From: an uncultured Verrucomicrobiota bacterium
GTDB taxonomy: Bacteria; Verrucomicrobiota; Kiritimatiellia; CAIQIC01; Lenti-01
DNA: 28,023 nt
Reading direction: 5' to 3'
Assembly (NCBI GenBank): GCA_964402575.1
Contig: CAYODC010000005.1
Span: 1 to 28,023 of the forward strand
In this document: piece after piece, positions 10,809 to 27,285 of the stretch
Numbering within the stretch: the first letter of the stretch is position 1
Layout: each line of letters begins with the position of its first letter
Notes under the pieces: generated by a model
Databases searched by the model: none
Seen by the model: only the letters and a program-made list of their open reading frames with translations
What the model was told of the DNA's origin: nothing
Translations under genes and position numbers: made by a program

Positions 10809-11471
10809 TCAGGCGACCGAGATGGCGGAAGCGACGCTTTTCCGTCTCGGGCTTTGCAGGGAACCGAGGAGCTTCTCCATGGCATTCATGCCGGCGATGG
10901 ACTGCTCGGGAGAAATATCAGCATACACTTGAGTAACCGTCAGGCTGGAGTGGCCAAGTTGTTTCTGAACCAACCTCAAAGAATTGGTCGCCTCGTAGAG
11001 CACCGTGGCGTTGGTATGCCTGGCGTCATGTAGCCGGTGATTGGGAACGTACTTCTTCCACCTTTTATACACGCCACTTGGCGCATACTTTGGACTGCGC
11101 TCGCTCCGAAGGAAGAAGTCTTCTGGCGATTGAATCTCGCCCCGTTCGACCTTCCACTTCATATACCAGCGAACATCGGAAGCGAAGCCTTTAGGCAAAT
11201 GGACATGGCGAGTCTTTCCGCCCTTACCCCTGCGGACCAAAAGACGGCTGTTTCCCCCGAAGATCGAAAAGTCCCCGCACCGGAGTTCGCAGACCTCGAA
11301 ACGCCGAAGGCCTGTATAGATGAAGGTCTGGATAATCATCCAATCTCTGATGAGCTGGGGCCTTTTCTTGGCAATTCCAAGCGTTTTGATTTCCTCGGCA
11401 CGCAAGAGCAGCGCGGTCAGTTCCTGCCGGTTGAGGAATTTTTCGGGCGTGATCTCCCAGTTCGGGTTCAT
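10809..11471 (-). CDS. Catalytic-domain-only tyrosine recombinase (220 aa)
   Basis: TGLRRFEV (R), RGKGGK (K), HRLHDARH (HxxR), LGHSS, TQVY (Y). Begins directly at the catalytic domain (PEKFLNRQEL). ATGA overlap with the ruvB-like stop. Confidence 0.95.
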   Translation of the reverse strand: MNPNWEITPEKFLNRQELTALLLRAEEIKTLGIAKKRPQLIRDWMIIQTFIYTGLRRFEVCELRCGDFSIFGGNSRLLVRRGKGGKTRHVHLPKGFASDVRWYMKWKVERGEIQSPEDFFLRSERSPKYAPSGVYKRWKKYVPNHRLHDARHTNATVLYEATNSLRLVQKQLGHSSLTVTQVYADISPEQSIAGMNAMEKLLGSLQSPRRKSVASAISVA

Positions 11472-12442
11472 GCTGATACCTCCTGTAGAGTGGCAAACAT
11501 CTCTCTGGCCTTTTCCGTCGCCACCCGTCCCCTGGACGACCGGCGGAGAAGTCCTTCCCGGATGAGATGGGGCTCCATGGCCTGTTCAATGGTCTCGATG
11601 GTTTCATTCAACGCTGCCGAGACCGACGTGAGCCCCACCGGCTGGTCGGCTTGGATGAGCATCCCCAGATACCGCCGATCCTGCCCCGTCAGCCCAGAGG
11701 CGTCCACGTCCCGCATAGCATACGCTTCCTGAACGGCGTTGAGATCAGGGGCGACTCCCAGGCCCGACGAATACTCAACCAGCCAGCGCAGATGGCCGAT
11801 TGCTATGCGAGCAGTGGAACGAGACCGCTTGGCTACTTCCATGGCGACGCCTAGTTCCAATTCGACGCCCATGGCCTTGGAGGCCCGGAGGACAATGCGA
11901 GTCAGGTCGTCGAGGCTGTATGGCTCAAGGGTCAGCTCATGAGCAAAACGGCTACGCAATGGCGCAGATACCAGGCCAGACATCGTAGAGGCTCCCAATA
12001 AAGTGAAAGGCGGAATGGCGACCATCTCGGTGGCTGGCTTTGCCTGGACGCCCAGGGCCCGCATGAAGTCGGAGGACTCTGTCTTGACCACCGGAACCAA
12101 ATTGTCCTCCATCGCCGGATACAGGATTTCTTCCACCGATCTGGCCATCGCGTGAATCTCATCGATGAAGAGGACATCCAGGGGCTTCAGGGAGCGAAGG
12201 AGTCCAATGAGTTGCTCTGGAGCCTGGAGATTTCCGCCGATGGTCTCCACCAGCTTACCTCCAATTTCGTTGGCGACAATTCTGGCCAGCGTCGTTTTCC
12301 CCAATCCAGGGGGTCCAGAAAGAAGGACATGGCTGACAGAGGTCTTCTTGGTCTTGGCAGATCGGCAGAGGATCTGGAGGACTTGCCTGACACGCTCTTG
12401 GCCAATGAAGTCATTGAGGCTGGATGGGCGGATGCATTGCAT
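11468..12442 (-). CDS. ruvB: RuvB-like Holliday-junction branch-migration AAA+ ATPase (324 aa)
   Basis: RPSSLNDFIGQ, GPPGLGKTT (Walker A), LFIDEIH (Walker B), EEILYPAMED, PPFTLLGA, PLRSRF (Arg finger), STARIA (sensor II), C-terminal wHTH PVGL...EPHLIREGLLRRSSRGRVAT. Confidence 0.93.
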   Translation of the reverse strand: MQCIRPSSLNDFIGQERVRQVLQILCRSAKTKKTSVSHVLLSGPPGLGKTTLARIVANEIGGKLVETIGGNLQAPEQLIGLLRSLKPLDVLFIDEIHAMARSVEEILYPAMEDNLVPVVKTESSDFMRALGVQAKPATEMVAIPPFTLLGASTMSGLVSAPLRSRFAHELTLEPYSLDDLTRIVLRASKAMGVELELGVAMEVAKRSRSTARIAIGHLRWLVEYSSGLGVAPDLNAVQEAYAMRDVDASGLTGQDRRYLGMLIQADQPVGLTSVSAALNETIETIEQAMEPHLIREGLLRRSSRGRVATEKAREMFATLQEVSA

Positions 12443-12587: not shown

Positions 12588-12812
12588 CTATGTGCCAACG
12601 CCACATCCCAGGCCCCGCCTTTGCCCGCCGATTGGTGCAGATAACCCGTCCAAACGCTTCCGCCTGATGGCATTGGTTGGCTTTATCATCGCCAATCCCG
12701 TTCGATTCTGGGCGATGGCGGTCACATTCGGCTCGGAAACCGCCGATAAATATATGAAGCCAGCATTCTGCCTCAGGGGATCTGCCTCAAATCTGGAGCC
12801 CTTCCGCATCAT
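12588..12812 (-). CDS. Small basic hypothetical protein (74 aa)
   Basis: AGGAGG SD 6 nt before ATG, 10 bp after the stop of the 112-aa gene. No family recognised. Confidence 0.55.
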   Translation of the reverse strand: MMRKGSRFEADPLRQNAGFIYLSAVSEPNVTAIAQNRTGLAMIKPTNAIRRKRLDGLSAPIGGQRRGLGCGVGT

Positions 12813-13182: not shown

Positions 13183-14850
13183 TTATGCCAGCCCTTCCGC
13201 CCCTTCGGTCTCGTTGATGGCCTTCCTTATGTCTGCCAGTCTGACAACGATGTCCCCAGGCTTGTCGTCGTAGAGATGTCCTTCGACCAGGGTTCCTAGG
13301 ATAGTTTTCACCGCTCTGGAATATCCACGAATTTCGCAAGCCCAGTTGGCAAGGTACTGAATGGCTTCATCCGTCAAGTCGAGACTCATGCCGAAGGACT
13401 GAAGAAAGGCGTTTTGGCGGGCAAGCAGGCCTGTCCTTGGGTGAGAAGTGATGCGGACGATCTGCTCGGGAGTCGGATCTGGGAGGACAATGATCGCCCC
13501 GATCCGATTGACGATCTGCTCCATGAAGCCATATTTCACAAGGGCGTCTCGGATATCACTCCTTGCAGCCTTTGCTCCGGCCGACCCAAAGCCAAGCCCC
13601 GAAGACTTGCGGTTGCCATCAGCCAGCAGATCCCGAAGCCCCTGAAAGGCTCCGCAAAGCAGAAAATTTGTTTCCCAGCAGTCCAGCACGCCCATATATG
13701 GTGTATTTGATCGCCTTGAACCCAACGGCAGCTTGCATCCCTCCAGAGGCTTCAGCAATTCGGCCTGGATTCCTCGGCCCTGAGGGTCTGTCGATGAATG
13801 GCCTCCGTCACCCTTGGCGCAGAGCTTGTCAAATTCGTCCATGACCAGGATGCCCTTCTGGGCTTCTGACGGCTTGGTCTTGTTGGCCAGCAGGCCGAAG
13901 AAACACTCGTCAATGCTCAACCCGACATAGGAAGCCTGAGAAACCCCTGACATATCGGCTACCGAATATGGGAGTCCGCTGACTCTGGCGAATGATTCTG
14001 CCATATGTGTTTTTCCGCTTCCGCTGGAGCCGATTAAAAGGGTCACAACTGGAGAAACACTTGGCCTGACTCCCTTACGAATCTGCTCCAGACGACGCAT
14101 ATGGAGACTCATTTGGGCGGAAAAACGACGCAAGGGGACATCTATGCCGATGACCTCGTTTTTCAAGGTATCGAAAATTCCCATGGCCGTCAGCAGCTTG
14201 GGGGTCTCGCCGGGCTTCTGGACGGAAGGGGGAGGTTCTGCATTGCGTGATACTGTTGCAGACTTATGAGATTCGGAAATATTCTTCCGCACCCATTCAT
14301 CCCTGTCCCTCTGAAGGCTCTCTGCATCCCAAATCACAGGAAGGTTGTCGTTGCTCAGAAACTTGGACAATTTCCATGCAGGCAACAACTCGCCTCCTGC
14401 GTAATCGGTTTCCTTGTAGCAGATGGCATCCTTTCTACCAACGAGCATTCGGATCGTCCTGCGACTTTCAAGATGAAGGCTCATATCTCCTAGCGAGGCC
14501 GCCGTTGCAGCTCTTGCAACCGATATTCCCGAACGCTCTGTGGTCAAAGAACCCCAGCCAATGTAGGAGATGATTCTCAAGGCAATATGGTCGCCGAGAA
14601 CCTGGTCGCCCCTGATCTCTAATAGCGATCGCAACAGCCGTTGGTTGGTGTCATAGGCGGCAGTCTCTATTCGCTTCTCAATAGCCTCGATTTCAGAACG
14701 AAGCCTAGAAGCCTCATGAGGCCGAATAGGTCTCGTCAGCCCAAGTTCGCTCTGGGGGAACGCATACTGATGCAGGAGTTGGCCAAGCCGAAGGACATCG
14801 GCAGTGGCCTGCTCTCTGGTGGGCATTGATTCTTTGGACTCTTCAGCCAT
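13183..14850 (-). CDS. ClpX-like AAA+ ATPase with an unrecognised ~215-aa N-terminal region (555 aa)
   Basis: EVIG, LLIGSSGSGKT (Walker A), SYVG pore loop (cf. GYVG), ILVMDEFDK (Walker B), GIQAELLK (cf. GVQQALLK), FLLCGAF (cf. FICGGAF), GLGFG loop, LVKYGFMEQIVNRI. No C4 zinc-binding domain. Confidence 0.88.
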   Translation of the reverse strand: MAEESKESMPTREQATADVLRLGQLLHQYAFPQSELGLTRPIRPHEASRLRSEIEAIEKRIETAAYDTNQRLLRSLLEIRGDQVLGDHIALRIISYIGWGSLTTERSGISVARAATAASLGDMSLHLESRRTIRMLVGRKDAICYKETDYAGGELLPAWKLSKFLSNDNLPVIWDAESLQRDRDEWVRKNISESHKSATVSRNAEPPPSVQKPGETPKLLTAMGIFDTLKNEVIGIDVPLRRFSAQMSLHMRRLEQIRKGVRPSVSPVVTLLIGSSGSGKTHMAESFARVSGLPYSVADMSGVSQASYVGLSIDECFFGLLANKTKPSEAQKGILVMDEFDKLCAKGDGGHSSTDPQGRGIQAELLKPLEGCKLPLGSRRSNTPYMGVLDCWETNFLLCGAFQGLRDLLADGNRKSSGLGFGSAGAKAARSDIRDALVKYGFMEQIVNRIGAIIVLPDPTPEQIVRITSHPRTGLLARQNAFLQSFGMSLDLTDEAIQYLANWACEIRGYSRAVKTILGTLVEGHLYDDKPGDIVVRLADIRKAINETEGAEGLA

Positions 14851-14951: not shown

Positions 14952-15497
14952 CTAGTCGAACTTGATCCGCAGGTTGTCCCCTTCACGAATCAATGCGAAG
15001 CCGTCACGGCAGGAGCGGTGTTTTCGCTCCGAATCGGTCGAGGCGGACAGGATCACGGCCAGATCGTACCGCGCATGGGTCTCATCCTTGCCATTGGCCT
15101 TGCTGAAAGCGCGAATGAGATCGGGCTTCCCGATGCCCTTGGAGCCTGCCGAGGCAATCAAATCCACCAGCAAACCATACGAACTTCCCTCCCTGAAAGG
15201 ATTCTTGGGGTGACGGGCGACAGTGGACTTCCTGGGGCTCTTTGCGGTCTTTTTGACAGCCTTCTGAGCCCGTTTTTCCTTCGGCGTCGCCACCAATCGT
15301 TCGGACTTCGCCGTCCCCGCCTTGTTCCCAGCCAGGATGGCCTCGATGCCAGGTACGGTCTCCCGCAGCTTCTTGGCCGTCGAACCCGACAACTTGTTTC
15401 CACCCCCAAGCAACCGATAGACTTCGGTGAGCGACTTGGGCGATTTGGATTCCAGAATCTCGACAATCTTCTCTTTCGACACTTCCATTGTAGACAT
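14952..15497 (-). CDS. Hypothetical basic protein (181 aa from ATG 15497), possibly DNA-binding
   Basis: AAGGAGG SD before ATG 15497. Two compact regions joined by a Lys-rich linker (KEKRAQKAVKKTAKSPRKS). Confidence 0.75.
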   Translation of the reverse strand: MSTMEVSKEKIVEILESKSPKSLTEVYRLLGGGNKLSGSTAKKLRETVPGIEAILAGNKAGTAKSERLVATPKEKRAQKAVKKTAKSPRKSTVARHPKNPFREGSSYGLLVDLIASAGSKGIGKPDLIRAFSKANGKDETHARYDLAVILSASTDSERKHRSCRDGFALIREGDNLRIKFD

Positions 15498-15677: not shown

Positions 15678-15875
15678 CTATGGCTTCACTGTTCCCATGG
15701 CATCCGCCTCGATGGCCTTCAGCAAGAATTTTGTATCTTGAAGCACGGACTTGGTTCGCCATATGACGTCGAGAAGAGCGAGGCGTTCGACGGCATTTGC
15801 TTTGTCTAGGGACGCTTTGAGGCTATCGCAAGCGAAGCCAAGGTCGTGGCTCGCCTTTGTCAGGGATTCTTTCAT
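15678..15875 (-). CDS. Small helical hypothetical protein (65 aa)
   Basis: ATGA overlap with the stop of the XRE-fusion gene (15872-15875). Confidence 0.65.
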   Translation of the reverse strand: MKESLTKASHDLGFACDSLKASLDKANAVERLALLDVIWRTKSVLQDTKFLLKAIEADAMGTVKP

Positions 15876-16342
15876 ATTTTTTCCTGTTTCGGACGCCGTT
15901 TTGTCGGAGGAGTGGATTTCTGGTCGGCAACAGAGGCTTTAGACGGCCTGGATAATGCAAGGTTCCTTCTGTCCATGAGCCTTCTGGCCTTCTGCCACCA
16001 GTGCCTGACTTCTTCCAGATTGATGCCCAGATTGTCGGCCTGGGCCTCGATTCCGCTGATGATGTCTTCCAATTGAGCGAGGATTTTCCAGGCCTCAAGG
16101 TCTTCAGGCAGAGTTTCCCTGGGTGGAGTGGCATAGAGGTTTTCGACGGAGACTTTCAAAACCTGGGAAAACCCCATGATCTCATGGTCGAAGACTTTTC
16201 TCGTCCCCAGTTCGATCCCGGCGATCTCTTCACTGGTCAGGGGAGACGATGGAGGCAGGGCTGAAGATAGTTGATGTACCGTCAACCCTTTCTGGATGCG
16301 TATACGGCGAATTTGCCAACCTAGGATGTTCTTCAATGCCAT
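15872..16342 (-). CDS. XRE-family HTH regulator with an extra C-terminal helical domain (156 aa)
   Basis: NILGWQIRRIRIQKGLTVHQLS...EIAGIELGTRKVFDHEI...VLKVSVENL is an HTH_3-type pattern, followed by EDLEAWKILAQLEDIISGIE helices. Confidence 0.85.
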   Translation of the reverse strand: MALKNILGWQIRRIRIQKGLTVHQLSSALPPSSPLTSEEIAGIELGTRKVFDHEIMGFSQVLKVSVENLYATPPRETLPEDLEAWKILAQLEDIISGIEAQADNLGINLEEVRHWWQKARRLMDRRNLALSRPSKASVADQKSTPPTKRRPKQEKI

Positions 16343-16391: not shown

Positions 16392-16634
16392 CTATTTCTG
16401 CTTACCCTTGGGAAACAGGTCGGAGACTCCGACGCCTAGGGCCTGGGCTAGGAGAAGTGCTTCCCCATCAGAAACGCAACGGATGCCAGCCTCGATCTTG
16501 GCCAGCGTTCCCCTGCTGATATCCAGGCCGACTCTTTGGCATTTGGCAGAGAGTTGATCCTGCGAAAGGCCGAGTTGATTCCTCAATCGGCTGACCTGTT
16601 TTCCTGTGACGTTCGTGGGCAAGCATTGCTCCAT
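16392..16634 (-). CDS. XRE-family HTH regulator (80 aa)
   Basis: NVTGKQVSRLRNQLGLSQDQLSAKCQRVGLDISRGTLAKIEAGIRCVSDGE...ALGVGVSDLF. Confidence 0.92.
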   Translation of the reverse strand: MEQCLPTNVTGKQVSRLRNQLGLSQDQLSAKCQRVGLDISRGTLAKIEAGIRCVSDGEALLLAQALGVGVSDLFPKGKQK

Positions 16635-16746: not shown

Positions 16747-17181
16747 ATGACCCAAGGCATCCCGGCTTCTGCCATCTGGCCATCCCTGCGCCTTTTCCTG
16801 CTGACCCTGTTGGTGTCGGGACAGATTCATTCCTATGGGCAGTCCGACTCATCTTGGCAAAGAGATGCAGGAGCCGTCGCCCGTAGCCACGTCAGCGGAA
16901 TGATCAACTCCGGGGCGGGAATCAGAGCCTCTCTCGTAGGCTACCAAAGGGGATTGGGCGTCCCGCTTATCGCCATCTACAACTACGAGGGGTACACGAC
17001 CGGGGGATTCCTAAAGCGAACGATGCTATCGGTGGCCATGCAACGCGACCAGCAAGGCAACTGGCATGTCGTGGCCGCCGAGGAAGGCGGGGTTTTCGAG
17101 GGGCTACCCTTGCGAAGCGACTGGCGACAGGTCGCCCAAGACGGCGGGCGGGCCAGAGAAGTCCAGAGACGCGGTTATTGA
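16747..17181 (+). CDS. Putative secreted protein (144 aa)
   Basis: AAGGA SD before ATG 16747. Hydrophobic signal-like stretch LRLFLLTLLVSGQIHSYG. Stop 13 bp before the next gene. Confidence 0.7.
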   Translation: MTQGIPASAIWPSLRLFLLTLLVSGQIHSYGQSDSSWQRDAGAVARSHVSGMINSGAGIRASLVGYQRGLGVPLIAIYNYEGYTTGGFLKRTMLSVAMQRDQQGNWHVVAAEEGGVFEGLPLRSDWRQVAQDGGRAREVQRRGY

Positions 17182-17194
17182 GGAGTATTCGCAG

Positions 17195-19870
17195 ATGAAC
17201 TTCAAATGTCGGGTCGGCCAAGCTCATCGGATCGGATTTCAATGTCTCATGGCGGGATCGCTCATTCCCGTCTTCTTCACCGGATGTTCCGACAGCCGAA
17301 AGGAAGCCGAGGTTGCCTCATCCTCTGTCGTTGCCACAACCCCTTCGGTTGCCACGTTGTCTGCCAAGACGCTTACCGACGCCTTCGCCTTGAACGAAAA
17401 TTCAGCAAATCAGACATACAAGGGCAATGTCATCACCGTATATGGGCCAGTTCAGGAAAAGCATGACGAAGGCGACAAGGCCTTGGTGGTTTTGACGGGT
17501 GGGATTAACCAAGAGGTTTTCTGCACCGTTTCTCCTCGGCTTTCGGGAGATGCAGACGATCTTGAGGTTGGAAGAACGGCTATCATCAAGGGTAAATGCC
17601 TTGGAATCGTCCAGGGAAACCTCTCGCTAGACAAGTGCGTCATCGAGGATCGACTGAGGGAACTGAAGGCCAAGGCAAAGTCGGGGGATTCGACCGCCCA
17701 ATTCGACCTTGCCAAGGCCCTTGAGACGCCTGCCAAGGAAATTCGCGACATTCGGCGGGCGTTCCATCTCTACTGTCAAGCTGCGGAGGCAGGCCACGAA
17801 GATGCCAAATGGACGGTTACGAGGGCCTTGGCGAACGCATGGAGTCCCGAAACCAATGCCCCTGTTATCTGGCAATGGCTCAAGGAGGAGGCGGAGACCG
17901 GCAATGCGGAAGCCTGCTATCTGATGGGAATACTCTTCAACGTGAACGAAGACTTCGGCATCGATCCCAAAGCGGGAGTCCCTTGGTTCAAAAAGGCTTC
18001 GGATGGCGGTCATCAGGAAGCCACATACACCATGGCCGTGCTCAACTACGAAGGTGAACTGGTCCCAACCAACAAGGCCGAGTCAGCACGCCTCCTCTCT
18101 CTCGTCGATCCCCAGCGTCAACCGAGGGCAGCGGAGTCTCTTGGCCTAATGCGCTTGCTGGGTGATGGCATTGAGGCAGATGTTCCCAACGGTCTGTCAC
18201 TCCTTGAAACGGCGGTCGCATACGGGAGAGCCCAATCCGCTTCCACCCTTGGGCGCATCTATCTGTACGGCGTGGCGGTGCCAAAGGACCGAGAGAAAGC
18301 CCGCGAATGGTTTCTCAAGGCGGCGGAAATGGGAGATGCCTATGGGCAGGTCAAGGCCGGGCTCCTGCTGGGCGGAAAGGACTCGGCCCGCTTCGAGCGG
18401 AGCCGGAACTTGGTTTTCGCAGCCCTGAGCAACGACCAGCAAGTTGCATATACGGAAATCGTTTCCTTCATGACGGATGAAGTGACCGGCATGCTGGAGA
18501 CCGACAATCCTCCCCTGGCTCCCCAGGATTCGATGTGGTTCCGCAAGATCAATGGCACGCTGGGTGGGGGCAAGTTCATCGGCCTCAACGAAGGGGTTCT
18601 GGATTTGATGTCGGACACCAACCGCATCGCAGTCCCCCTTGCGGATCTCGACGTGGCCGGGCGAACCCGATACGACCCCGAGTTCCGTAGCCTTCTGGCC
18701 CGCTCCATCATCACGGAAAACGTATATGCCATGACGGCGGAATTCAAGCAGCCCAAACCCAAGCCCTCGACAAACGACTGGACGGAGGCTTTGAGAACAT
18801 TGGCAGACGATGGGGAACCAGACGCCATGGCATGGCTGGGAAACAGCCTGCTGGAAGACCCGAAGACCAGGGAGGAAGGCATTGGCTGGCTGAAGAAGTC
18901 TGCCGAGGCGGGATCTGCCTATGGGCAGAACGCCATGGGGATGGTCTGCCTAAGCGGCATCGGCCAATCCGTGGACAAGGAAACGGCATTCCGCATGTTC
19001 AAGCTGGCGTCGGAACAAGGCTATTCAGAATCGACTTTCACCGTCGGACGGATGCTCATGGCAGGGGCGGGTTGCGAAAAGGACTCGAATGGCGGGCTTG
19101 GCCTCATCAGGCAGGCGGCAAACGAAGGAGAGATTCCTGCAATCTTGTTTTTGGGACGCTACTTCTATGGAGACCGGCGGGGCTCTCGCGATGCCGCTCA
19201 AGCCTTTGCATGGTTCCGTTGGGGAGCCGTCATGGGAAGCCCGGAAGCCCAATACTGGCTGGGACGGATGTATTACGAGGGAAGAGGACTGCCCAAGGAC
19301 TACAACCGGGCGATCCAATGGCTGTCTTCATCTTCCGGTCAAGACTATCAACCCGCTAGCCATTACCTTGAAAGCGATTCCGCCAACCGTCAGGAAATGG
19401 CCAGGGCCAAGGCCGCCTACCAGCAAGAACTGGAGAGACACGCGGACCAAGTGGAGCGAATCCGACAAAACCCCAAGTACGATCTGGTCAATTACCTTTC
19501 AGGTGCCCCGCGAAGATTTTCCAAATCAAGCACGGAAAGGGAGGCTTATAGCCAGTTCCATAAGAACCTCTCGCAAGGATACTCTTTACGCGCGGCCGCC
19601 TCCAAGGCATGGGAAGATGTCGGCGTCGCGCCTCGCGCTTCGCCTCGCGCATCGTCGCAGTCTAGTTCTGGTTCGATCTTTGGAGGCGCGACCGATCCGA
19701 GAGATCGGCTGGCGATAGCAAAGGCAACGCAGAACATGCTTGGAAATCGGTTTTCAACGATAGGCAGTCCATTTGACGGCTGGTCTTCCCTTCCTACCTA
19801 TTGGTCCGATGAGCAAACTTGGCGCGACAGACAGCTAGAGGCCATCCAGGGAAGCACGATGGGATTCTAG
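17195..19870 (+). CDS. Lipoprotein with tRNA_anti-like OB fold, Sel1-like repeats and an SHD1-like domain (891 aa)
   Basis: GAGGAG SD; lipobox-like FTGC; SAKTLTDAF...YKGNVITVYG...GRTAIIKGKC (tRNA_anti-like); many Sel1 repeats (AQFDLA, ACYLMG, AREWFLKAAEMG, AQYWLGRMYYEGRG, AIQWL); WFRKING...KFIGLNEGVL...IAVPLADLD (SHD1-like). Confidence 0.9.
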   Translation: MNFKCRVGQAHRIGFQCLMAGSLIPVFFTGCSDSRKEAEVASSSVVATTPSVATLSAKTLTDAFALNENSANQTYKGNVITVYGPVQEKHDEGDKALVVLTGGINQEVFCTVSPRLSGDADDLEVGRTAIIKGKCLGIVQGNLSLDKCVIEDRLRELKAKAKSGDSTAQFDLAKALETPAKEIRDIRRAFHLYCQAAEAGHEDAKWTVTRALANAWSPETNAPVIWQWLKEEAETGNAEACYLMGILFNVNEDFGIDPKAGVPWFKKASDGGHQEATYTMAVLNYEGELVPTNKAESARLLSLVDPQRQPRAAESLGLMRLLGDGIEADVPNGLSLLETAVAYGRAQSASTLGRIYLYGVAVPKDREKAREWFLKAAEMGDAYGQVKAGLLLGGKDSARFERSRNLVFAALSNDQQVAYTEIVSFMTDEVTGMLETDNPPLAPQDSMWFRKINGTLGGGKFIGLNEGVLDLMSDTNRIAVPLADLDVAGRTRYDPEFRSLLARSIITENVYAMTAEFKQPKPKPSTNDWTEALRTLADDGEPDAMAWLGNSLLEDPKTREEGIGWLKKSAEAGSAYGQNAMGMVCLSGIGQSVDKETAFRMFKLASEQGYSESTFTVGRMLMAGAGCEKDSNGGLGLIRQAANEGEIPAILFLGRYFYGDRRGSRDAAQAFAWFRWGAVMGSPEAQYWLGRMYYEGRGLPKDYNRAIQWLSSSSGQDYQPASHYLESDSANRQEMARAKAAYQQELERHADQVERIRQNPKYDLVNYLSGAPRRFSKSSTEREAYSQFHKNLSQGYSLRAAASKAWEDVGVAPRASPRASSQSSSGSIFGGATDPRDRLAIAKATQNMLGNRFSTIGSPFDGWSSLPTYWSDEQTWRDRQLEAIQGSTMGF

Positions 19871-19938
19871 CTCGAACGACACCCAATGCCTTAACTAATG
19901 AAACGCAGTAATCCGCAATAATTCAGGAGGATAAATCC

Positions 19939-20289
19939 ATGCTATGCCTTAACTGTGGTCGACAGGTCGAGTTTGTCGGCAAGGTCTGCCCCTGGTGCGG
20001 AGCCCAGAAAGTCCAATCCCAGAATTTACAAATTACAGCACTGTTCTGGGGGCTTTTAGGGACTTTCCTTGGTGCCGGAGTTGGCTGGGAATTCAACAGC
20101 GTCGTTGGCGCGGTCATCGGCGGGATAATCGGAATGGTCGGGGGCACCGCCCTTGGGATTGCCAGGGCTTCCGCCCCAATGAACCAGAACGTAAAATGTC
20201 CCCTTTGCGGAACCGACCTGGTGGTGGATCGGGCGAAGGGGCCGAACTACAATTGCCCAAAATGCGGGGGCCTGTTTCATCTTCAGTGA
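19939..20289 (+). CDS. Double zinc-ribbon membrane protein (116 aa)
   Basis: CLNC/CPWC and CPLC/CPKC pairs flank two Gly-rich hydrophobic segments. AGGAGG SD. Confidence 0.85.
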   Translation: MLCLNCGRQVEFVGKVCPWCGAQKVQSQNLQITALFWGLLGTFLGAGVGWEFNSVVGAVIGGIIGMVGGTALGIARASAPMNQNVKCPLCGTDLVVDRAKGPNYNCPKCGGLFHLQ

Positions 20290-20506
20290 GAGATAGAAAT
20301 GCGATGGATGGTTGACGCGAACAACCTATGTCCGGCGAGATTCTGGCCGGGAATATATAATCCGCCCGCCAAACAGGGATGAACACAAGACGCCATCTAT
20401 CAGACCATCTATTAGCCTTGGCCTTGCATGGGAAGTGTGCTACAGAATGCATCGCGGGACGAATGTATGAGACGAGTTGGCAAGAGAAAACATTAGGGAA
20501 GCAAGA

Positions 20507-23500
20507 ATGAATGCAATTCGCAAAGGCGTGTTGGTCGCACTGCTAACAATAACGATCCTGCCGGTGGCGGCTCTGGCGCAGTTGAACACTCTGGATTCCT
20601 TGGTGACGCACTATCTGGAGCAGAGGCCCGAAATGGCTCCGCTCATTCCGCCGCTCCAGCCCGCCGTTCTCAAGACCATCGAGACCATGATTCGCAAGAG
20701 CGATTACAGCTTTCAGGATTGGGAAGACTGGTATGCCGGTTGGGGAGAAAGCTCCTGGTCGGCTGAAGGCGAACTGGCGGACTATAGCGGACAAACACTG
20801 TTGGTGTACGAGGACCTTTCCGAGGCCGCCATCCAGATCGTGACATCGGATGGAAAACTGGTTGCCACATACGAAAGCGAGCCCTTCCCGAACTTTTCAA
20901 CCCTCACCAGGACGGCGGCCGACAATGCATTTCTGGAAGAACTGAATCTCCGCTCCATCATGTTCTGGGTTTCGATTGAAAACGAGTCTGTTGCCTCTGC
21001 GCGTGCCGCCGCGGCGTCGTCTGCTGTTCTGAGCGGTTCAGGCGGGATGGCCATGATGAGCATGGGCGGAAGCAACAATTTTGAAGTCATCGAGATCGGT
21101 CAGACGAATACCGGCATGGCCGTGACATTTGCTTGGCCTGCGACGTTCACAAACCGGGTCAATATTTATAGCTTCGACGGCGGAGAGTTCACGGGGCGGG
21201 TTTCCTGGACCCTCGCCGATGTTGGCTATGTCACGGCGGGAACGAATCAACTGCGCTGGATCGATTCAGGTCAGCTTGGTCGTGCCCTACCCGGCGAAAC
21301 GGGCGTACGGTTCTATGCCGCCGGAGCCGGGGCAGAAGTGGACGCCGATGGCGATGGCTACGGCGATTCTTACGAATATCTTGTGTTGCATACCTCCACC
21401 AACGATCCTGATACCGACAACGATTTGGTCAGCGACGGCCCGTTTGACCCGGACAATGCCGGTTCCATCGTTTCCGGCCCCGACGCTTTCCCGTTTGATC
21501 CCAACGAATGGCTGGATACCGATGGCGACGGCATCGGCGACAATTCTGACCCGGACATCGACGGCGATGGCATCCCGAACGGTTCGGACCCGGAACCACT
21601 GACGGCCGGTATCATCGCGCCGTTCAAGGTCTGTTCCGTGATTTCGACCAATCCACCCGGAAGCGATGCTGGCGATGAGCAATTTGATATTTCAAGTGCA
21701 GGGCGGATGTTGCCTTATGCGTCAGGTGGCAACGCCATTAGCGGGTTTGGACGCATTCATGGAGGCATCTATCTCAACCACGATGGAACCAATCTGTATA
21801 TCGGCGTGGCTGGCTACTCGAAGCAGGCTGCGGAAGACGGCGATGATGCTCTTCTGATCGTGCTGGACACGAAAAGCGGAGGCGTCAGCGGCTTGAATGC
21901 CATCAGTTCCGGCCCCAAAGGCCTTCGTATTTGCGACAATCTGCTTTTCCAGGCTGGGACATTCGAGCCTGATGTGGGCATTCTCGTGGGAAATCGGAAC
22001 AGCGATGGACGGAATGAACTAACGGCGCAAATCGGTGGCAAGGAATATGGCCAGGGGGTCTATGTTCTTGCGGGCAATGTCGCCACCAATATGACGCCTG
22101 CATTCACGGAAAGCGGACCCTCGCCGATCTCGCAGTGGGGCGATACACCCTACAGCACCATTCTCGCGAACGCCGGGATTGAAATAGCCATTCCGCTGAG
22201 CAATCTGCTAGATAGTGCTTGGTCGCCTGCCACCACCACGGCGATCTATGCCGCTGCGATCGTGTTAGGCGGCGACAATGACACCCAGCGTTGGCTATCC
22301 AGCGAAGCCTACGGAGCAAGCGTCAGCGGTAGCTTTGGCAACAACAATACGACTCTCCTGGGAACCCGCGTATATTTGTCTCCAATCCCAGCCCCGGAAC
22401 CAAGCACCACACCGCTTTTCGACGACGGCGAGGTGATGATTCAGTCCTTTGGCTGGGATGTTCCCAGGCCGGTGACAACCCATTTCAACACCATGAGCGT
22501 GGTGGGGTCCTTCAATAGTTGGAATCCAGCCGTCAACAACATGACCCCTATTGGCGACGACACCTGGGAATACATCCACGTCTTCACCAATGCCTCCAGC
22601 GTGGCTTTCAAGTTTGCGGCAAATGGAGTTTGGTCTAATCAATGGGGTGAGAATAACCAAAGCGATTTCATATTGCCCATCAACGGCTCCTATGCCGAAT
22701 ACAACGTGGGCAACATAGTCATTTCCAATACGCTCAACGGCTCGGTCCGGTTCCGATTCAACAATGGCAGTCAGATCTATTCGGTCGAAGCCGTCACAAA
22801 CGGCACCCCCACCACGCTTCTGTCTGGCTATTCCGATATGTACTGGTATGCGCGTCTTCAACAGGAGGTGGAGAGCAACCTTTACGCCAGGTTCGACCGG
22901 GTCTGGATGAATCCACCTCAGAAGGGCCGAAGTGGAAAATACAGCGTGGGCTATGACGTATTCGACCCTTACGATTTGGGAAGCTACAACCAGAAAGGCA
23001 CGGTTCCCACACGCTATGGGACAGAAGATCAGCTTGATGCCTGCTATCAGGCGTTTGCACAGAAGGGAATCGATTGCATCGTCGATACCGTGCTTAATCA
23101 TATGAACAATAGCGAGGTCTCCAACCGCTACGACTACGTCTACAGCCATCGGACCTTCGAGAAGCGAAACATCGGCTCCGGCGACACTAACGGCTTTTTC
23201 AACGTCGACTACACCGATTTTCCTTTCCGGTATGATTTCGGATTCGGTCTGCCGGAAGGCGTAGATGCGTGGGATGCCTATCCCGACGCCCATTCGGCGG
23301 ATGTGAACGAGCGCAGTCCTTATATGCGTAGCGGTATGAAGAACAACGGCAACTGGCTGCAGGCGAAGCTGGGTGCCCACGGATGCCGTTTCGACTACAC
23401 CCAAGGCATGGGTCCCGACTTCTTTGCCGAATACATGCGCTCTGGTCTGATGCGCGACCGGTTTGCCGTCGGGGAATACTGGACGGACAATGAATACGCT

Positions 23501-24196
23501 TCTGCCAGAGAACACGAATCATGGATCACCCTCATGGACAATCGGGTGTGTTCTTTTGATTTCCCGTTACATGACAAGCTTGAGAGAATGTGTAATTATC
23601 CTTCGACGTTTAACATGGAAGAGCTGTCCTATGGCGCGTTGATTCATGTCAATCCAGACCGGGCAGTGACCTTCGTGGAATCGCACGATGAAATCAGACC
23701 GTATGGCGCAAATGACAAAATTGGCATGCAATACAATAAAGAGCTAGCCTATGCCTTCATCCTAATGTCCGAAGGCCAACCCTGTGTGTTCCGCCAGGAT
23801 TATCTCGATGCGCCTTACGCCGATCCCGACGCTCCTGCCGATTCCATTGATGACGGATGGACGGGCAGTCCGCTGAAAACCCTTATCGATCCTTTGATTG
23901 ATGCACGGAAAAAGTATGCGGGCGGAGCTACGGTCTATCTGTCCACCGCAAATAAAGATCGACTGTTCATTGCCAAACGGGAAGGCACCGAAACCAAGGA
24001 TGGATGTATCTTAGTTATCAACAATCATCTCTCGCAGACGCTCACGAACAGCGTCGATACGGGCTGGACACAGGGGACCGTGCTGGTTGATGCGCTGAAT
24101 ACGAACCACTCTGTCACCGTGCAATCCGGCGGTATGGCTCCCCTGAGCGCATCGAACAGGTTCTACCGGGTGTATGTTCGTCAATCAGCCCTGTAA
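20507..24196 (+). CDS. Secreted multidomain GH13 alpha-amylase-like protein (1229 aa from ATG 20507)
   Basis: Signal peptide; DxDxDG calcium-binding TSP3-like repeats (~21340-21600); beta-sandwich sugar-binding-like region; GH13 regions VDTVLNH, RFDYTQG (D at 23393), VGEYW (E at 23474), FVESHD (D at 23687); C-terminal beta domain. Confidence 0.92.
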   Translation: MNAIRKGVLVALLTITILPVAALAQLNTLDSLVTHYLEQRPEMAPLIPPLQPAVLKTIETMIRKSDYSFQDWEDWYAGWGESSWSAEGELADYSGQTLLVYEDLSEAAIQIVTSDGKLVATYESEPFPNFSTLTRTAADNAFLEELNLRSIMFWVSIENESVASARAAAASSAVLSGSGGMAMMSMGGSNNFEVIEIGQTNTGMAVTFAWPATFTNRVNIYSFDGGEFTGRVSWTLADVGYVTAGTNQLRWIDSGQLGRALPGETGVRFYAAGAGAEVDADGDGYGDSYEYLVLHTSTNDPDTDNDLVSDGPFDPDNAGSIVSGPDAFPFDPNEWLDTDGDGIGDNSDPDIDGDGIPNGSDPEPLTAGIIAPFKVCSVISTNPPGSDAGDEQFDISSAGRMLPYASGGNAISGFGRIHGGIYLNHDGTNLYIGVAGYSKQAAEDGDDALLIVLDTKSGGVSGLNAISSGPKGLRICDNLLFQAGTFEPDVGILVGNRNSDGRNELTAQIGGKEYGQGVYVLAGNVATNMTPAFTESGPSPISQWGDTPYSTILANAGIEIAIPLSNLLDSAWSPATTTAIYAAAIVLGGDNDTQRWLSSEAYGASVSGSFGNNNTTLLGTRVYLSPIPAPEPSTTPLFDDGEVMIQSFGWDVPRPVTTHFNTMSVVGSFNSWNPAVNNMTPIGDDTWEYIHVFTNASSVAFKFAANGVWSNQWGENNQSDFILPINGSYAEYNVGNIVISNTLNGSVRFRFNNGSQIYSVEAVTNGTPTTLLSGYSDMYWYARLQQEVESNLYARFDRVWMNPPQKGRSGKYSVGYDVFDPYDLGSYNQKGTVPTRYGTEDQLDACYQAFAQKGIDCIVDTVLNHMNNSEVSNRYDYVYSHRTFEKRNIGSGDTNGFFNVDYTDFPFRYDFGFGLPEGVDAWDAYPDAHSADVNERSPYMRSGMKNNGNWLQAKLGAHGCRFDYTQGMGPDFFAEYMRSGLMRDRFAVGEYWTDNEYASAREHESWITLMDNRVCSFDFPLHDKLERMCNYPSTFNMEELSYGALIHVNPDRAVTFVESHDEIRPYGANDKIGMQYNKELAYAFILMSEGQPCVFRQDYLDAPYADPDAPADSIDDGWTGSPLKTLIDPLIDARKKYAGGATVYLSTANKDRLFIAKREGTETKDGCILVINNHLSQTLTNSVDTGWTQGTVLVDALNTNHSVTVQSGGMAPLSASNRFYRVYVRQSAL

Positions 24197-24204
24197 GGCG
24201 TGTC

Positions 24205-25002
24205 ATGAACATGTTGCGCTGTATGCTTTCCGTTGTCTTTTTGGGTATCTCTTCCAGCCATGCGGATACTCTCAGCTATCTCCGCTTTGAGGAGGGAAGT
24301 GGATATGGGGCCTATGATGAAACTGGATTAATGGATGGAGGGGTTTTGGGCTTCACCAGCGTCGATCCTGGCGGCGGAGATACGGGCGGGACGGGATGGA
24401 GCACCAATGTTTCTTCCGCATCGGTTCCTCAAACCGGCGAAGCCAATACCGGTTCGCTCCATTTTGGGCCAGGTATGGTCGATCTGAGCAATGCCAACGC
24501 TCTCAGCCTTGGCATGGAATTCACTATTGAGATGTTTCTAATGCCGAGTTCTCCCAATACATTTAATTCGATATTCGGGTTTTCTCCCGTATCCCAATTG
24601 TATTTTACCCTGATTGATTCGTCGGGAAATCTCTATTTTCGGATGCAATTTCAGGACCAGATCGACAGCCTTGTTCCTGCCACCTTGCTTCAAGAGAATG
24701 TATGGTCACATGTGGCTCTTGTCGTGGAATCAACGGAGTACAGCATTTATGTTGACGGGCAAAGTCAATATAACGGATCAATTCCTGCCAATGGTGAAGG
24801 TCCCTATTGGTTTTCCGGCGATCCCACCACCGGCAATCGGACATATGGCAACGGGTTCTGTGGCTGGCTTGATGAATTCCGCATCAGCGACGAAGCATTG
24901 TCGCCCAGCCAATTCCTGAACGCTTCCATACCTGAGCCAGGCACGCTTGGCCTTCTTTTTCTTGGCGCGACAGGTTTGATCTGTCGCAAACGGCGTAAAT
25001 AA
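24205..25002 (+). CDS. LamG-like jellyroll protein with PEP-CTERM sorting signal (265 aa)
   Basis: Signal peptide, YLRFEEGSG, FTIEMF, WSHVALV...IYVDG, GWLDEFRISDEAL, IPEPGTLGLLFLGATGLICRKRRK. Confidence 0.92.
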   Translation: MNMLRCMLSVVFLGISSSHADTLSYLRFEEGSGYGAYDETGLMDGGVLGFTSVDPGGGDTGGTGWSTNVSSASVPQTGEANTGSLHFGPGMVDLSNANALSLGMEFTIEMFLMPSSPNTFNSIFGFSPVSQLYFTLIDSSGNLYFRMQFQDQIDSLVPATLLQENVWSHVALVVESTEYSIYVDGQSQYNGSIPANGEGPYWFSGDPTTGNRTYGNGFCGWLDEFRISDEALSPSQFLNASIPEPGTLGLLFLGATGLICRKRRK

Positions 25003-25772
25003 CTGCACCATGATCTTCACCATATTGCGGAGATTATGAAGAGGAGCATTCTTACTCTGGCGGTTCAGATGCTGGCACTGGCGACATCCCATGCTGACAC
25101 CCTCAGCTACCTCCGCTTCGAGGAAGGAAGCGGATATGGCGCGTATGACGAAGCTGGACTGATGAATGGAGAAGTGCTTAATGTTAGTAATGTGTCAGCC
25201 GGGGGAGGGGATACAGGCCCTCAGGGTTGGAGTACAAATGTTTCTTCCGCAACAGTTCCGCTTATTGGTGAAGCCAATACCGGATCTATGCATTTTGCTG
25301 GAGGCAGTGCGTTCATTGACCTAAGCAATGCCAACATTCTTAGTCTCGGGCTCGAATTCACCATCGAACTATTTATGAAACCGGACATGCCGATAACGGC
25401 ATCGCCTATGTTTCATTTTTCTCCCGTCAGCGCACTTTCTTTTATGTTGGGCGAAGATTTTGGAAATCTTTACTTTTCCAGTTGGTTTCAATCTGCATCC
25501 ACATACGATTCGGCTAGCTTGGTCCAGATTGATGAGTGGCAGCATTTCGCCTTGGTTGTAGATTCAACGTCCTATGCGATCTATCTCAATGGCCAAGTTC
25601 AAGCCTCGGACTCTCTGCCCACAGGAGGCGAAGGCCCCTACTGGTTTTCCGGCGATCCCACTACCGGCAACCGAACCCTCGGTGATGGATTCCGTGGCTG
25701 GATCGACGAATTTCGCATCAGCGACGAAGCGTTGTTGCCCAGCCAATTCCTGAACGCTTCCATACCTGAGCC
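24903..25772 (+). repeat. 36-bp identical direct repeat shared by the two PEP-CTERM paralogues (24903-24938 and 25737-25772)
   Basis: GCCCAGCCAATTCCTGAACGCTTCCATACCTGAGCC read in both copies, within longer blocks of high similarity. Confidence 0.9.
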
Positions 25773-25836
25773 GGGGACGCTTGGACTGCTCGGCCTAGGT
25801 TTCATAAGCCTAATGACCCGAAAGCGACTTCGTTGA
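25036..25836 (+). CDS. LamG-like jellyroll protein with PEP-CTERM sorting signal (266 aa), tandem paralogue
   Basis: Same motifs as 24205-25002; IPEPGTLGLLGLGFISLMTRKRLR. Confidence 0.92.
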   Translation: MKRSILTLAVQMLALATSHADTLSYLRFEEGSGYGAYDEAGLMNGEVLNVSNVSAGGGDTGPQGWSTNVSSATVPLIGEANTGSMHFAGGSAFIDLSNANILSLGLEFTIELFMKPDMPITASPMFHFSPVSALSFMLGEDFGNLYFSSWFQSASTYDSASLVQIDEWQHFALVVDSTSYAIYLNGQVQASDSLPTGGEGPYWFSGDPTTGNRTLGDGFRGWIDEFRISDEALLPSQFLNASIPEPGTLGLLGLGFISLMTRKRLR

Positions 25837-25908
25837 TTCGCTCGGTTCCCCTCCCGCTGGCATCGTTTCTCCTTTCCTCCCTCGCACACATGGCCCACAA
25901 AGTGGCTC

Positions 25909-26607
25909 ATGCGAATCTCCGCCAAAAACCTCGGCCTCCTAGCGCTGCCCGATTGCTGTCCCAGATGTTTTTGGCTCCGTGCCAGACTGGGCTGGAAGTC
26001 TCCTTGGTCGATCATGCCAGGCATCTTCAGTTCCATTGACGGCTTCTCCAAGCGGGCCATCCTGGCTTACTTCGAGAAAACAGGCCATTTCCCGCCATGG
26101 ATTGCTGGCCGATGGGCTGACGTTCGCCCTTTGAAGTCTCCACACCACTCCACCTTCAGGCTCACCGATCCCGAAACTGGCGTAACCCTGACCGGCATTC
26201 CCGACCTGGTTCTTCGTCTCCCGAAGGATAAACTGGCCATCCTCGACCTAAAAACCGCCAGATTCAGCGACCATCAGGATTCCCTCCTGCCCATGTACCG
26301 AGTCCAACTGAACGGCTACGCCTTGATCGCGGAAAGCCTCGGCATGGGAACTGTGGATGCTCTGGGGCTCGTCTACGGGGAGCCTCCGCCCAATGATGCC
26401 AATCAGGGACTTGATGCCTTGGTAAGCGATGTGGGGTTCTCAATGCCATACAAGGCAACGGCAATGCCCATAGAACTCGACAGGGCTTTGATTCCGCCAT
26501 TGCTGCGAAAGGCCAAGGACATTCTGGAAATGGAGAGTGCTCCCGAAGGGCGGGAGGGTTGCAAGGAGTGCAGGCTGGTCGGGGAGATGGTCGAAATTTG
26601 CGGTTGA
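25909..26607 (+). CDS. PD-(D/E)XK nuclease, Cas4/RecB/AddB-like (232 aa)
   Basis: N-terminal DCCPRC, LTGIPD (motif II), ILDLKT (motif III), QLNGY (QxxxY), C-terminal GCKEC. Confidence 0.87.
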   Translation: MRISAKNLGLLALPDCCPRCFWLRARLGWKSPWSIMPGIFSSIDGFSKRAILAYFEKTGHFPPWIAGRWADVRPLKSPHHSTFRLTDPETGVTLTGIPDLVLRLPKDKLAILDLKTARFSDHQDSLLPMYRVQLNGYALIAESLGMGTVDALGLVYGEPPPNDANQGLDALVSDVGFSMPYKATAMPIELDRALIPPLLRKAKDILEMESAPEGREGCKECRLVGEMVEICG

Positions 26608-26748
26608 TTCTGGCACTGGCGTCGGAATGGGGCATCTTCTCCTTAACCCCCACTTTCACTACGCCTTGTTGACAGAACCGATCAATCCGATAGGATGTCG
26701 GCAACAACTCGGCAAGGGGAATGCCGATAAATATGAAGGGGGAAATCC

Positions 26749-27285
26749 ATGAGTAGGCTATCGAGTTCCGTGCAGAATGGAACGATCAAGCAGTGCGTTG
26801 TTGAGCCAGCCGAGACAAGCGAGAAGCAGCGAATCGAGAAGGCTACGGTTGATGCCTTTGTCCTGCTGTTCAACACCAGCCAAGGACAAGATTACGCCAT
26901 CCTGCAATACGGCGATGCACCAGACGCAACATGCAGAAACAGTTCAGGCCAGATCATGCAAGTCGAGGTCACCCTGACCGAGGACAACCCTGGCGACTGG
27001 GCATGGTCGCTTGGGAAAACAGCCCCCCCCCCTCCAAGATCATGGTTTGGCAATTGCCTTCAGAGGAACGTGCTCAACCGACTGCTGGATCGCCTAGACG
27101 ACAAGATTCTCAAGCGTTATGGTAAAGACACCGCCCTGGTCATCCGAGACAGTTCGGGCGTTGATTGGGACTGGGAGTATGTGGCAGATGAGATTCGATC
27201 TGCGCTGAGGCCAAGGTTCAACCCCTATGACATGGGGATTTGGATTCTCAACCGCACCAAATCTCGGCTCTTCAGGCTGACCTGA
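26749..27285 (+). CDS. Hypothetical protein, probable restriction-endonuclease-like fold (178 aa)
   Basis: E-rich first helix (EKQRIEK), GDAPDATC...QVEVT (PD...ExT), KILKRY and ALVI strand. The gene is well supported; the fold is inferred. Confidence 0.7.
   Translation: MSRLSSSVQNGTIKQCVVEPAETSEKQRIEKATVDAFVLLFNTSQGQDYAILQYGDAPDATCRNSSGQIMQVEVTLTEDNPGDWAWSLGKTAPPPPRSWFGNCLQRNVLNRLLDRLDDKILKRYGKDTALVIRDSSGVDWDWEYVADEIRSALRPRFNPYDMGIWILNRTKSRLFRLT

Follow-up and report, generated by a model that had tools for sequence, protein, structure and literature searches.

A ClpX-like unfoldase gene in a Verrucomicrobiota contig

We analyzed a stretch of 28,023 nucleotides from an uncultured Verrucomicrobiota bacterium (hereafter, the window), which is the entire contig C5 of a 2.66-Mb metagenome-assembled genome (MAG) that is 64% complete. 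Its minus strand carries an open frame of 555 amino acids (aa) at 13183..14850, named P0001 in this work, with matches to ClpX in NCBIfam and in PDB. The gene lies in a leftward array that opens with a regulator of the XRE family and includes a small site-specific recombinase; all features of this array given below are on the minus strand. We consider it likely that P0001 is a ClpP-docking–competent unfoldase with an exchangeable winged-helix head and that it belongs to a genomic island.

Pfam recognized only generic AAA and AAA_2 domains in P0001, and the top NCBIfam models were 2 ClpX equivalogs, NF003745 (141.6 bits, with a cut-off of 359 bits) and TIGR00382 (125.4 bits, with a cut-off of 370.75 bits). 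When P0001 was compared with all PDB chains by phmmer, ClpX ranked first (E 5e-34 to 1e-28) and residues ~211-544 were aligned without a break. Pfam, NCBIfam and phmmer against PDB place a ClpX-type AAA+ module at residues 225-545 (13216..14178). A scripted motif check agreed with the initial annotation, made from the letters of the window, that Walker A, Walker B and the SYVG pore loop are intact. Walker A reads GSSGSGKT (residues 274-281, 14008..14031; G274 and K280 invariant), the pore-1 loop SYVG is the counterpart of the GYVG of ClpX (residues 307-310, 13921..13932; G310 invariant), and Walker B reads ILVMDE (residues 334-339, 13834..13851; D338 and E339 invariant). At the position of the ClpX RKH loop, the alignment shows SRRSN (residues 378-382, 13705..13719), with R379, R380 and N382 at least 90% conserved, so that the loop is basic but reads RRS. 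The arginine finger R449 in VNRIG (13498..13512) is invariant and falls on the arginine of ClpX, and the invariant sensor-II R512 in GYSRAV (13309..13326) aligns to the GARGL of ClpX. K280, D338, E339, R449 and R512 were all invariant across 32 homologues and matched to ClpX residues, and the pore-1 loop of relatives reads GYVG, GWVG, GFVG or similar. Judged from these residues, P0001 contains a complete ClpX-type AAA+ module with its ATPase and pore residues intact. HslU is the closest other AAA+ clade and matches the first ~100 module residues at E 1e-14 to 1e-16; however, P0001 has no I-domain and scores 59 bits against the HslU cut-off of 362.45 bits, with a match confined to ~95 residues at the start of the module, and HslU has no IGF loop.

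We found about 70 full-length homologues in metagenomes (547-581 aa, 39-100% identity). Species-representative genomes contained one full-length member only, in a Verrucomicrobia MAG (68% identity), and no record in the phage and plasmid collections covered at least 80% of P0001, the matches there being ordinary ClpX modules of less than 30% identity. In PHROGs, the C-terminal half of P0001 matches phrog_4339 (E 8e-27), a family without assigned function. PADLOC 2.0 gave no system-specific match for P0001, where an 85-residue similarity to IetA (E 1e-4) was of the generic AAA+ kind, and no matches for the neighbours of its gene. A full-text literature search returned no description of the P0001 family or of its cassette.

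The putative ClpP-docking loop is conserved

The IGF or LGF loop is the docking element of ClpX for ClpP. In P0001, the phmmer alignment places LGF (residues 419-421) at the site of this tripeptide, and its coordinates, 13588..13596, are those that the initial annotation had given. The same annotation had made conservation of LGF in homologues a point on which its proposal could fall, and G-F proved invariant in 32 of 32. In the alignment of these homologues, whose AAA+ identity drops to 35%, position 419 is L in 28 (88%), M in 3 and I in 1, G420 and F421 are 100% conserved and G418 is 91% conserved, with loop flanks at 22-59%. This pattern indicates that the LGF loop is under selection, and a conserved tip between free flanks is as predicted by IGF docking on ClpP. 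Structural work has indeed described that the IGF tip of ClpX enters hydrophobic clefts of ClpP and that the RKH loop is specific to ClpX (PMC12383707). We also surveyed the cluster representatives among the best 150 of an exhaustive search, where [ILMVF]GF was kept in 80 of the 86 zinc-less representatives with N-termini of at least 150 aa and in 44 of the 46 zinc-domain representatives. From the loop we infer that P0001 docks on ClpP.

A predicted winged-helix head replaces the zinc domain

The C4 zinc domain of canonical ClpX serves adaptors and substrates. Residues 1-224 of P0001 contain a single Cys and, according to a scripted check, no CxxC pair; because of this, the C4 zinc domain must be absent, as had been proposed from the sequence at first reading. 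A Pfam search with the same residues found no match even at E≤1. We relied on an AlphaFold2 model of residues 1-224 (m28f995b3b43c), built on an alignment of 34 family members, which reached a mean predicted local distance difference test score (pLDDT) of 84.7 and a predicted template modelling score (pTM) of 0.77. In this model, residues 1-84 (14599..14850; pLDDT mostly >90) are a long helical hairpin with helices at 12-30 and 44-65. Residues 85-170 (14341..14598) are predicted to fold as a winged helix of three helices and a beta-hairpin, the H-H-H-beta-beta unit spanning ~85-168 (88-103, 111-119, 123-139, 143-146 and 154-157). Residues 171-224 (14179..14340) consist of a helix at 176-196 followed by a disordered Pro/Ser-rich linker, with pLDDT <50 from ~201.

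A VIA search with the head model returned winged-helix proteins for 50 of the 50 entries listed (Z 5.8-7.0). MarR-type regulators matched model residues ~43-168, with a root-mean-square deviation of 3.0-3.6 A over 87-99 residues, and the winged helices of ORC2, MCM, ScpA/B, H1/H5 and Rio2 matched model residues ~85-165. R92 and R130 are invariant in the head alignment and R134 is at least 90% conserved; R130 and R134 sit in the recognition-position helix of the predicted winged helix. By shape, the head was matched best in the ESM Atlas by N-termini of other AAA ATPases (TM 0.52), meaning that the architecture of a head plus AAA+ recurs. The head is therefore modelled as a probable helical hairpin plus winged helix, and the suggestion that the second half of the N-terminal region looks winged-helix-like is borne out by the model and its VIA matches.

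The head and the ATPase do not travel together. Between P0050 and P0069, identity is 93% for the head and 41% for the AAA+ module, and P0015 and P0016 show the reverse, with 36% and 93%. The window protein itself shares 91% of its head and 61% of its AAA+ module with P0014, and 43% of its head and 93% of its AAA+ module with P0015. As the 2 identities are decoupled, the head behaves as an exchangeable specificity module, one that was rejoined to differing ATPase modules on many occasions, and the comparison places the recombination joint in the disordered linker, at about residues 171-224.

P0001 is distinct from the ClpX of its host

We searched the MAG for the ClpP family. None was found on contig C5, in agreement with the initial annotation, which had seen no clpP beside P0001. 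The MAG gave two matches only: contig C90 encodes a canonical ClpP, which scores 285.6 bits, and a 577-aa frame on contig C194 has a weak match of 27 bits, just above the family cut-off. Contig C90 shows the order tig-clpP-clpX; its ClpP has 202 aa with the usual Ser/His/Asp motif contexts, and its ClpX has 435 aa, scores 615 bits and carries CxxC pairs, GYVG, RKH and IGF. With tig-clpP-clpX present, a host ClpP to borrow exists.

When a tree was built from the AAA+ modules of the host ClpX and of 143 cluster representatives, P0001 fell in an 8-leaf clade (support 1.0) inside clades of 53 leaves (0.95) and 71 leaves (0.999), and zinc-domain ClpX is absent from all 3. The proteins of the 71-leaf clade are zinc-less ClpX paralogues with long N-termini and resemble P0001 in size (~510-565 aa), in having a head of ~180-230 aa, in their [ILM]GF and in a pore of the GYVG type. 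The 8-leaf subclade of P0001 differs from them by its own head sequence and by its fixed neighbours, namely an XRE regulator, a basic winged-helix protein and a small recombinase. The distant zinc-less paralogue P0091, which is outside the 8-leaf clade, has a different neighbourhood.

The likeness to canonical ClpX (E. coli; TIGR00382/NF003745; 6PO1, 6VFS, 8YD0) runs end to end through both AAA+ domains, the large one and the small one, at ~28-30% identity and includes Walker A/B, an aromatic pore-1 loop, a basic loop at the RKH position, the Arg finger, sensor II and [L/I/M]GF. On the contrary, the C4 zinc domain is replaced in P0001 by a ~200-aa hairpin/winged-helix head with a disordered linker, and the gene is island-borne, sporadic and mosaic, lies outside tig-clpP-clpX-lon and scores far below the equivalog cut-offs. 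By sequence, then, P0001 would work like ClpX but is no ClpX orthologue.

A conserved gene set surrounds the ClpX-like gene in 14 loci

We compared the neighbourhood of the gene in 14 independent loci, the window included. In 14 of 14, a gene of ~171-208 aa lies immediately upstream of the ClpX-like gene and a small site-specific recombinase lies downstream, so that the neighbourhood conservation that the initial annotation had proposed to check is indeed found. In the window, the upstream gene encodes a basic protein of 181 aa (14952..15497; isoelectric point [pI] 10.1), with AAGGAGG 6 nt before the ATG at 15497. Sequence homologues of this protein occur in 12 of the 13 other loci at 42-65% identity, the most distant being that of L094 (26%); the remaining locus, compared by position and length, has a 181-aa gene at the same place. 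The family comprises >150 homologue clusters. Its model (mb4ffe9ee5809) predicts an N-domain of four helices, followed by a disordered linker rich in Lys and by a winged helix at the C-terminus; for the C-terminal domain, the top 10 VIA entries and nearly all 50 were winged-helix domains (Z 5.7-7.1). We also observed that the 181-aa protein is itself mosaic, as the identity of its N-domain shows no correlation with that of its C-domain from locus to locus (rho -0.24). The invariant residues of its C-terminal winged helix are NPFR, Y107, D112, K137, D145 and H160-R-S162, an unusual set that resembles a binding or active site more than a plain DNA reader.

The recombinase downstream is constant in presence and variable in kind. 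Eight loci have a RuvB-like protein and a tyrosine recombinase of 210-220 aa; 2 loci (L093, L141) have a 361-398-aa protein unrelated to the RuvB-like one together with a 192-aa tyrosine recombinase; 1 locus (L094) combines a 343-aa relative of that protein with a serine resolvase; and 3 loci (L132, L134, L138) have a serine resolvase of 198-206 aa alone. The window slot is at 10809-12442, and the enzymes of other slots are at L132:9453-10073, L134:8058-8654, L138:9675-10271 and L094:11080-11664. The 343-398-aa protein that occupies the RuvB-like slot (L141:3397-4482, L093:2729-3925, L094:9901-10932) had no Pfam match, no sequence relative in PDB and no similarity to the RuvB-like protein.

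In the window, the RuvB-like AAA+ ATPase has 324 aa (11468..12442; RuvB_N E 2e-49, RuvB_C E 3e-19) and is 83-86% identical across loci. It is followed by a tyrosine recombinase of 220 aa reduced to the catalytic domain (10809..11471; PF00589 E 1e-22; 84-93% identical across loci), the gene of which overlaps the RuvB-like stop by 4 nt. As a pair, the RuvB-like protein and the mini-recombinase are 83-93% identical across loci and the ClpX-like AAA+ modules 35-93%; the pair keeps this identity also where the whole ClpX-like protein is only 36-72% identical.

Co-variation between the ring and its neighbours

We asked which neighbouring proteins change together with P0001, using one-sided Mantel tests on 12 related loci and six comparisons. 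The sole positive signal linked the AAA+ module to the winged helix at the C-terminus of the 181-aa protein (rho 0.49, p 0.009). The head lies between these 2 on the DNA and correlates with neither (rho 0.09 and 0.21); no co-variation was seen between the head and the 181-aa protein (rho 0.01 and 0.09). The positive signal hints weakly that the 181-aa protein may be a functional partner of the ring. The prediction of a complex between head residues 1-200 and the 181-aa protein ended in "no answer" (score 0.00, mark 0.32), which is neither for nor against binding.

Three pairs of loci have a head in common, namely the window and L141 (91%), L008 and L138 (82%) and L005 and L132 (78%), and the recombinase module differs within each pair. 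Similarly, the window, L005 and L132 have the same AAA+ type (86-93%) and different recombinase modules. Since the recombinase family changes within a shared head or AAA+ type, these data argue against recognition of one particular recombinase.

We also considered the 112-aa open reading frame (ORF) directly after the P0001 gene (12823..13161), which belongs to a rare family of 9 clusters only. Among the compared loci, it was found only in the window and in L141, which have the same head type (91%). As a cognate partner of the head it is unsupported, being absent from the long contigs of P0005, P0006 and P0010, whose heads are of the same type.

The cassette belongs to an integrated island

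The GC content of contig C5 is 53.8%, the lowest among the 174 contigs of the MAG that reach at least 5 kb (mean 64.7%, standard deviation 2.6). A sister genome of the same genus (G001) has two related copies in low-GC blocks (0.47-0.59) that change sharply to 0.63-0.72 along the same contigs of 130 and 151 kb. Low-GC blocks within contigs of 63-69% GC indicate that these elements are integrated islands, and the assignment of C5 to the MAG rests on such related islands within chromosomal contigs of the same genus. Among other genomes, the head sequence turned up in 3 of 19 from the genus and in 0 of 35 from the order; this distribution speaks for an island, as do the integrase, primase-helicase and methylases encoded on C5. 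Contig C5 has no terminal overlap and is not circular, and it has no tRNA gene; both ends of the island appear to lie outside it.

The two islands of G001, on C11 (L132) and C14 (L133), carry ClpX-like proteins of different type: their identity to the window protein is 42% and 35% for the head, and 86% and 38% for the AAA+ module. One of these islands has a Ser resolvase and the other the RuvB-like protein with a Tyr recombinase, which is compatible with coexisting "types".

The leftward array of the window starts with the XRE (HTH_3) regulator (16392..16634; PF01381 E 1e-11), whose position is conserved across loci. It is followed by a 156-aa protein (15872..16342) in which locus comparison and Pfam show a weak XRE-like helix-turn-helix and a conserved C-terminal part of ~80 aa; this gene looks like a fusion, as the ~80-aa domain is a separate gene of 76-93 aa in L008, L010, L132, L133 and L134. 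A 65-aa helical protein (15678..15875) is present in some loci, with homologues of 65-78% identity in L005, L012, L132 and L134. Between the 112-aa ORF and the RuvB-like gene lies a basic ORF of 74 aa (12588..12812; pI 11.5), and related small ORFs follow the ClpX-like gene in other loci. Pfam found nothing for the head, for the 181-aa protein or for the 112-, 74- and 65-aa ORFs, and a scan for promoters and terminators did not rise above shuffled expectation.

After the recombinase, the array continues with ~0.9 kb of non-coding DNA, a ribbon-helix-helix (RHH) gene, a DUF3987/PriCT-2 primase-helicase and unannotated genes, and the minus-strand array of this left arm ends with Dcm and Dam methylases, an HTH_17 protein and a 352-aa integrase. 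The right arm (17066-27285, plus strand) encodes a 934-aa Sel1-repeat protein with a tRNA_anti-like OB fold, a double zinc-ribbon protein, a 1239-aa surface-type protein with TSP3 repeats and an alpha-amylase-type domain, two LamG proteins with PEP-CTERM sorting signals and a PD-(D/E)XK nuclease. It is partly conserved in sister islands, and its content is an unusual cargo beside a left arm given to replication and recombination.

Other loci have variable flanks with defence or toxin cargo (L005:1-8689, L136:11852-14540, L140:5750-9532, L008:14172-15392, L010:1-4039). The cargo includes BREX (PglZ, BrxL), CBASS (a DncV-like nucleotidyltransferase and E2-CBASS), a Hachiman-type pair of HamA and a DEAD helicase, a Tle1-like lipase and RHS/YD-shell toxins. 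The BREX flank also contains a 1989-aa protein with faint Cap4-nuclease and AAA_16 matches.

Discussion

We propose, with a probability of roughly 0.5, that P0001 is an island-encoded unfoldase of the ClpX family that serves as a ClpP-docking specificity subunit in a control operon led by an XRE regulator. P0001 would form a hexameric ring and be an active unfoldase, and the ring would dock on the ClpP of the host through its LGF loops; as the island has no ClpP of its own, P0001 most likely borrows that of the host. The winged-helix head, standing in place of the C4 zinc domain, would pick the targets and may sit on DNA or on a DNA-bound protein. In this way P0001 probably steers the host protease onto targets chosen by the island. 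The target would be a DNA-associated regulator of the island, degraded or at least unfolded, and the leading candidate for substrate or adaptor is the 181-aa basic protein; this identity of the target we hold with low confidence. Such proteolysis would set the balance between quiescence of the island and its recombination and replication.

Several observations weigh against this proposal. The only positive Mantel result loses strength when the six comparisons on 12 related loci are corrected for, its p of 0.009 becoming ~0.056 after Bonferroni, and the type of the head co-varied with none of the neighbouring proteins tested. The identity of the XRE regulator seems to track neither the head nor the AAA+ module, a comparison made by eye and not statistical, which leaves unsupported the suggestion of the initial annotation that XRE repressors may be substrates. 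A Foldseek search of the head against PDB found nothing at E≤1e-3, and the winged-helix match is middling according to the VIA calibration, with Z 7 at best; hence the grading of this fold as "winged-helix, probable". Moreover, the whole N-domain is near neutral (pI 6.5), and its predicted winged helix may bind protein instead of DNA. Finally, the [ILM]GF loop could have been retained for docking on a partner other than ClpP.

A more specific version of the proposal, which we hold to be rather unlikely, joins the ClpX paralogue with its winged helix-turn-helix, the basic winged-helix protein and the interchangeable recombinase into a proteolysis-gated switch of site-specific recombination. Here, the unfoldase would remove a DNA-bound silencer or architectural protein through host ClpP and so license excision, inversion or resolution, and swaps of head and ATPase would create insulated "immunity types" that allow islands to coexist, as in G001.

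It is unlikely, and somewhat more so, that the ring works without ClpP as a remodeller that disassembles or resets the synaptic complexes of recombinase and DNA and gives the small recombinase its turnover or directionality. ClpX alone remodels the MuA transpososome and activates TrfA. In all 14 loci a small recombinase follows the ClpX-like gene, with a RuvB-like DNA motor in between at 8 loci, and the modelled winged-helix head could hold the ring on DNA. However, selection on the [L/M/I]GF tip stays unexplained if ClpP has no part, and the recombinase family swaps between loci of the same head or AAA+ type. As specific recognition of one recombinase is thus unlikely, the idea of a Mu-like disassembly, which the initial annotation had also put forward, is weakened.

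We regard as equally doubtful that P0001 is a conflict factor which, together with host ClpP, destroys proteins of phages, rival islands or host defence, the shuffled head then reflecting an arms race. The extreme mosaicism of the head and of the ATPase module would suit such a role, and so would the cassettes that adjoin BREX, CBASS, Hachiman-type HamA with its helicase, RHS and Tle1-like toxins, and the presence of two islands of different types in G001. On the other hand, PADLOC found no match beyond generic AAA+ similarity, the ClpX-like gene stands in the conserved backbone from XRE to recombinase with the defence genes as variable cargo alongside, and no effector gene is constant across loci.

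Still less probable is a role as replication activator, in which the unfoldase would monomerise or clear an initiator or primase-helicase of the island at its origin, with or without ClpP. ClpX acts on TrfA, and ClpA on P1 RepA, in the activation of replication, and in the window the DUF3987/PriCT-2 primase-helicase and the RHH gene lie downstream in the same orientation; yet a primase is not constantly nearby, the downstream regions being different in L005, L008, L136 and L140. An ordinary ClpX, duplicated from the housekeeping gene or mis-binned, is what the top database names would suggest, but it is refuted by the scores (142 bits where the cut-off is 359, and 125 bits where it is 371), the zinc-less head, a locus away from clpP, a host with its own canonical clpX, the separate clade and the sporadic presence in the genus; the grouping with housekeeping ClpX or HslU that could have spoken for it was not seen.

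Our proposal of a ring that docks on host ClpP has several precedents in part. In the immR-immA-int type of ICEBs1 and related prophages, the genes of an XRE-type regulator, of a proteolysis component and of a recombinase form one leftward operon at the edge of the element, and the repressor is cleaved by ImmA, a metalloprotease complete in itself. The order of XRE, proteolysis and recombinase genes is alike here, by analogy; the difference is that P0001 is an ATP-dependent unfoldase proposed to need host ClpP, and there is no sequence relationship. Phage Mu is similar to what we propose in that a Clp unfoldase acts on DNA-bound proteins of recombination and regulation (the MuA transpososome, the Mu repressor), but Mu uses the ClpX of its host, whereas the island supplies a paralogue of its own that bears a new head, and the recombinases of the islands are small Tyr or Ser enzymes and not a DDE transposase. 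Jumbo phages are reported to encode ClpX, ClpA, ClpP or ClpS (PMC7824862), so that mobile elements carrying parts of the Clp machinery are not new in principle; as is proposed for the island, they encode parts that redirect host Clp proteolysis. What distinguishes P0001 is a selected docking loop without a cognate ClpP, clean shuffling, and linkage to a basic winged-helix protein and to recombinases of either chemistry.

Normally it is the host that determines the specificity of ClpXP, by way of the zinc domain, adaptors and degrons. If our proposal is true, an element that brings its own ClpX ring, with an exchangeable head and a loop compatible with host ClpP, would have a simple means of reprogramming host proteolysis, and the logic of phage adaptors would be carried over to the unfoldase. 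That small recombinases of either chemistry accompany the ClpX-like gene throughout suggests that regulated proteolysis and site-specific recombination are connected. The P0001 family belongs to a large radiation of uncharacterised ClpX paralogues without the zinc domain, which has, in one clade, 71 representatives of clusters at 50% identity, and given the size of this radiation and the lack of any description found in the literature, an established function would annotate many proteins. In addition, the domain shuffling supplies natural chimeras with which the choice of targets by a ClpX head may be dissected.

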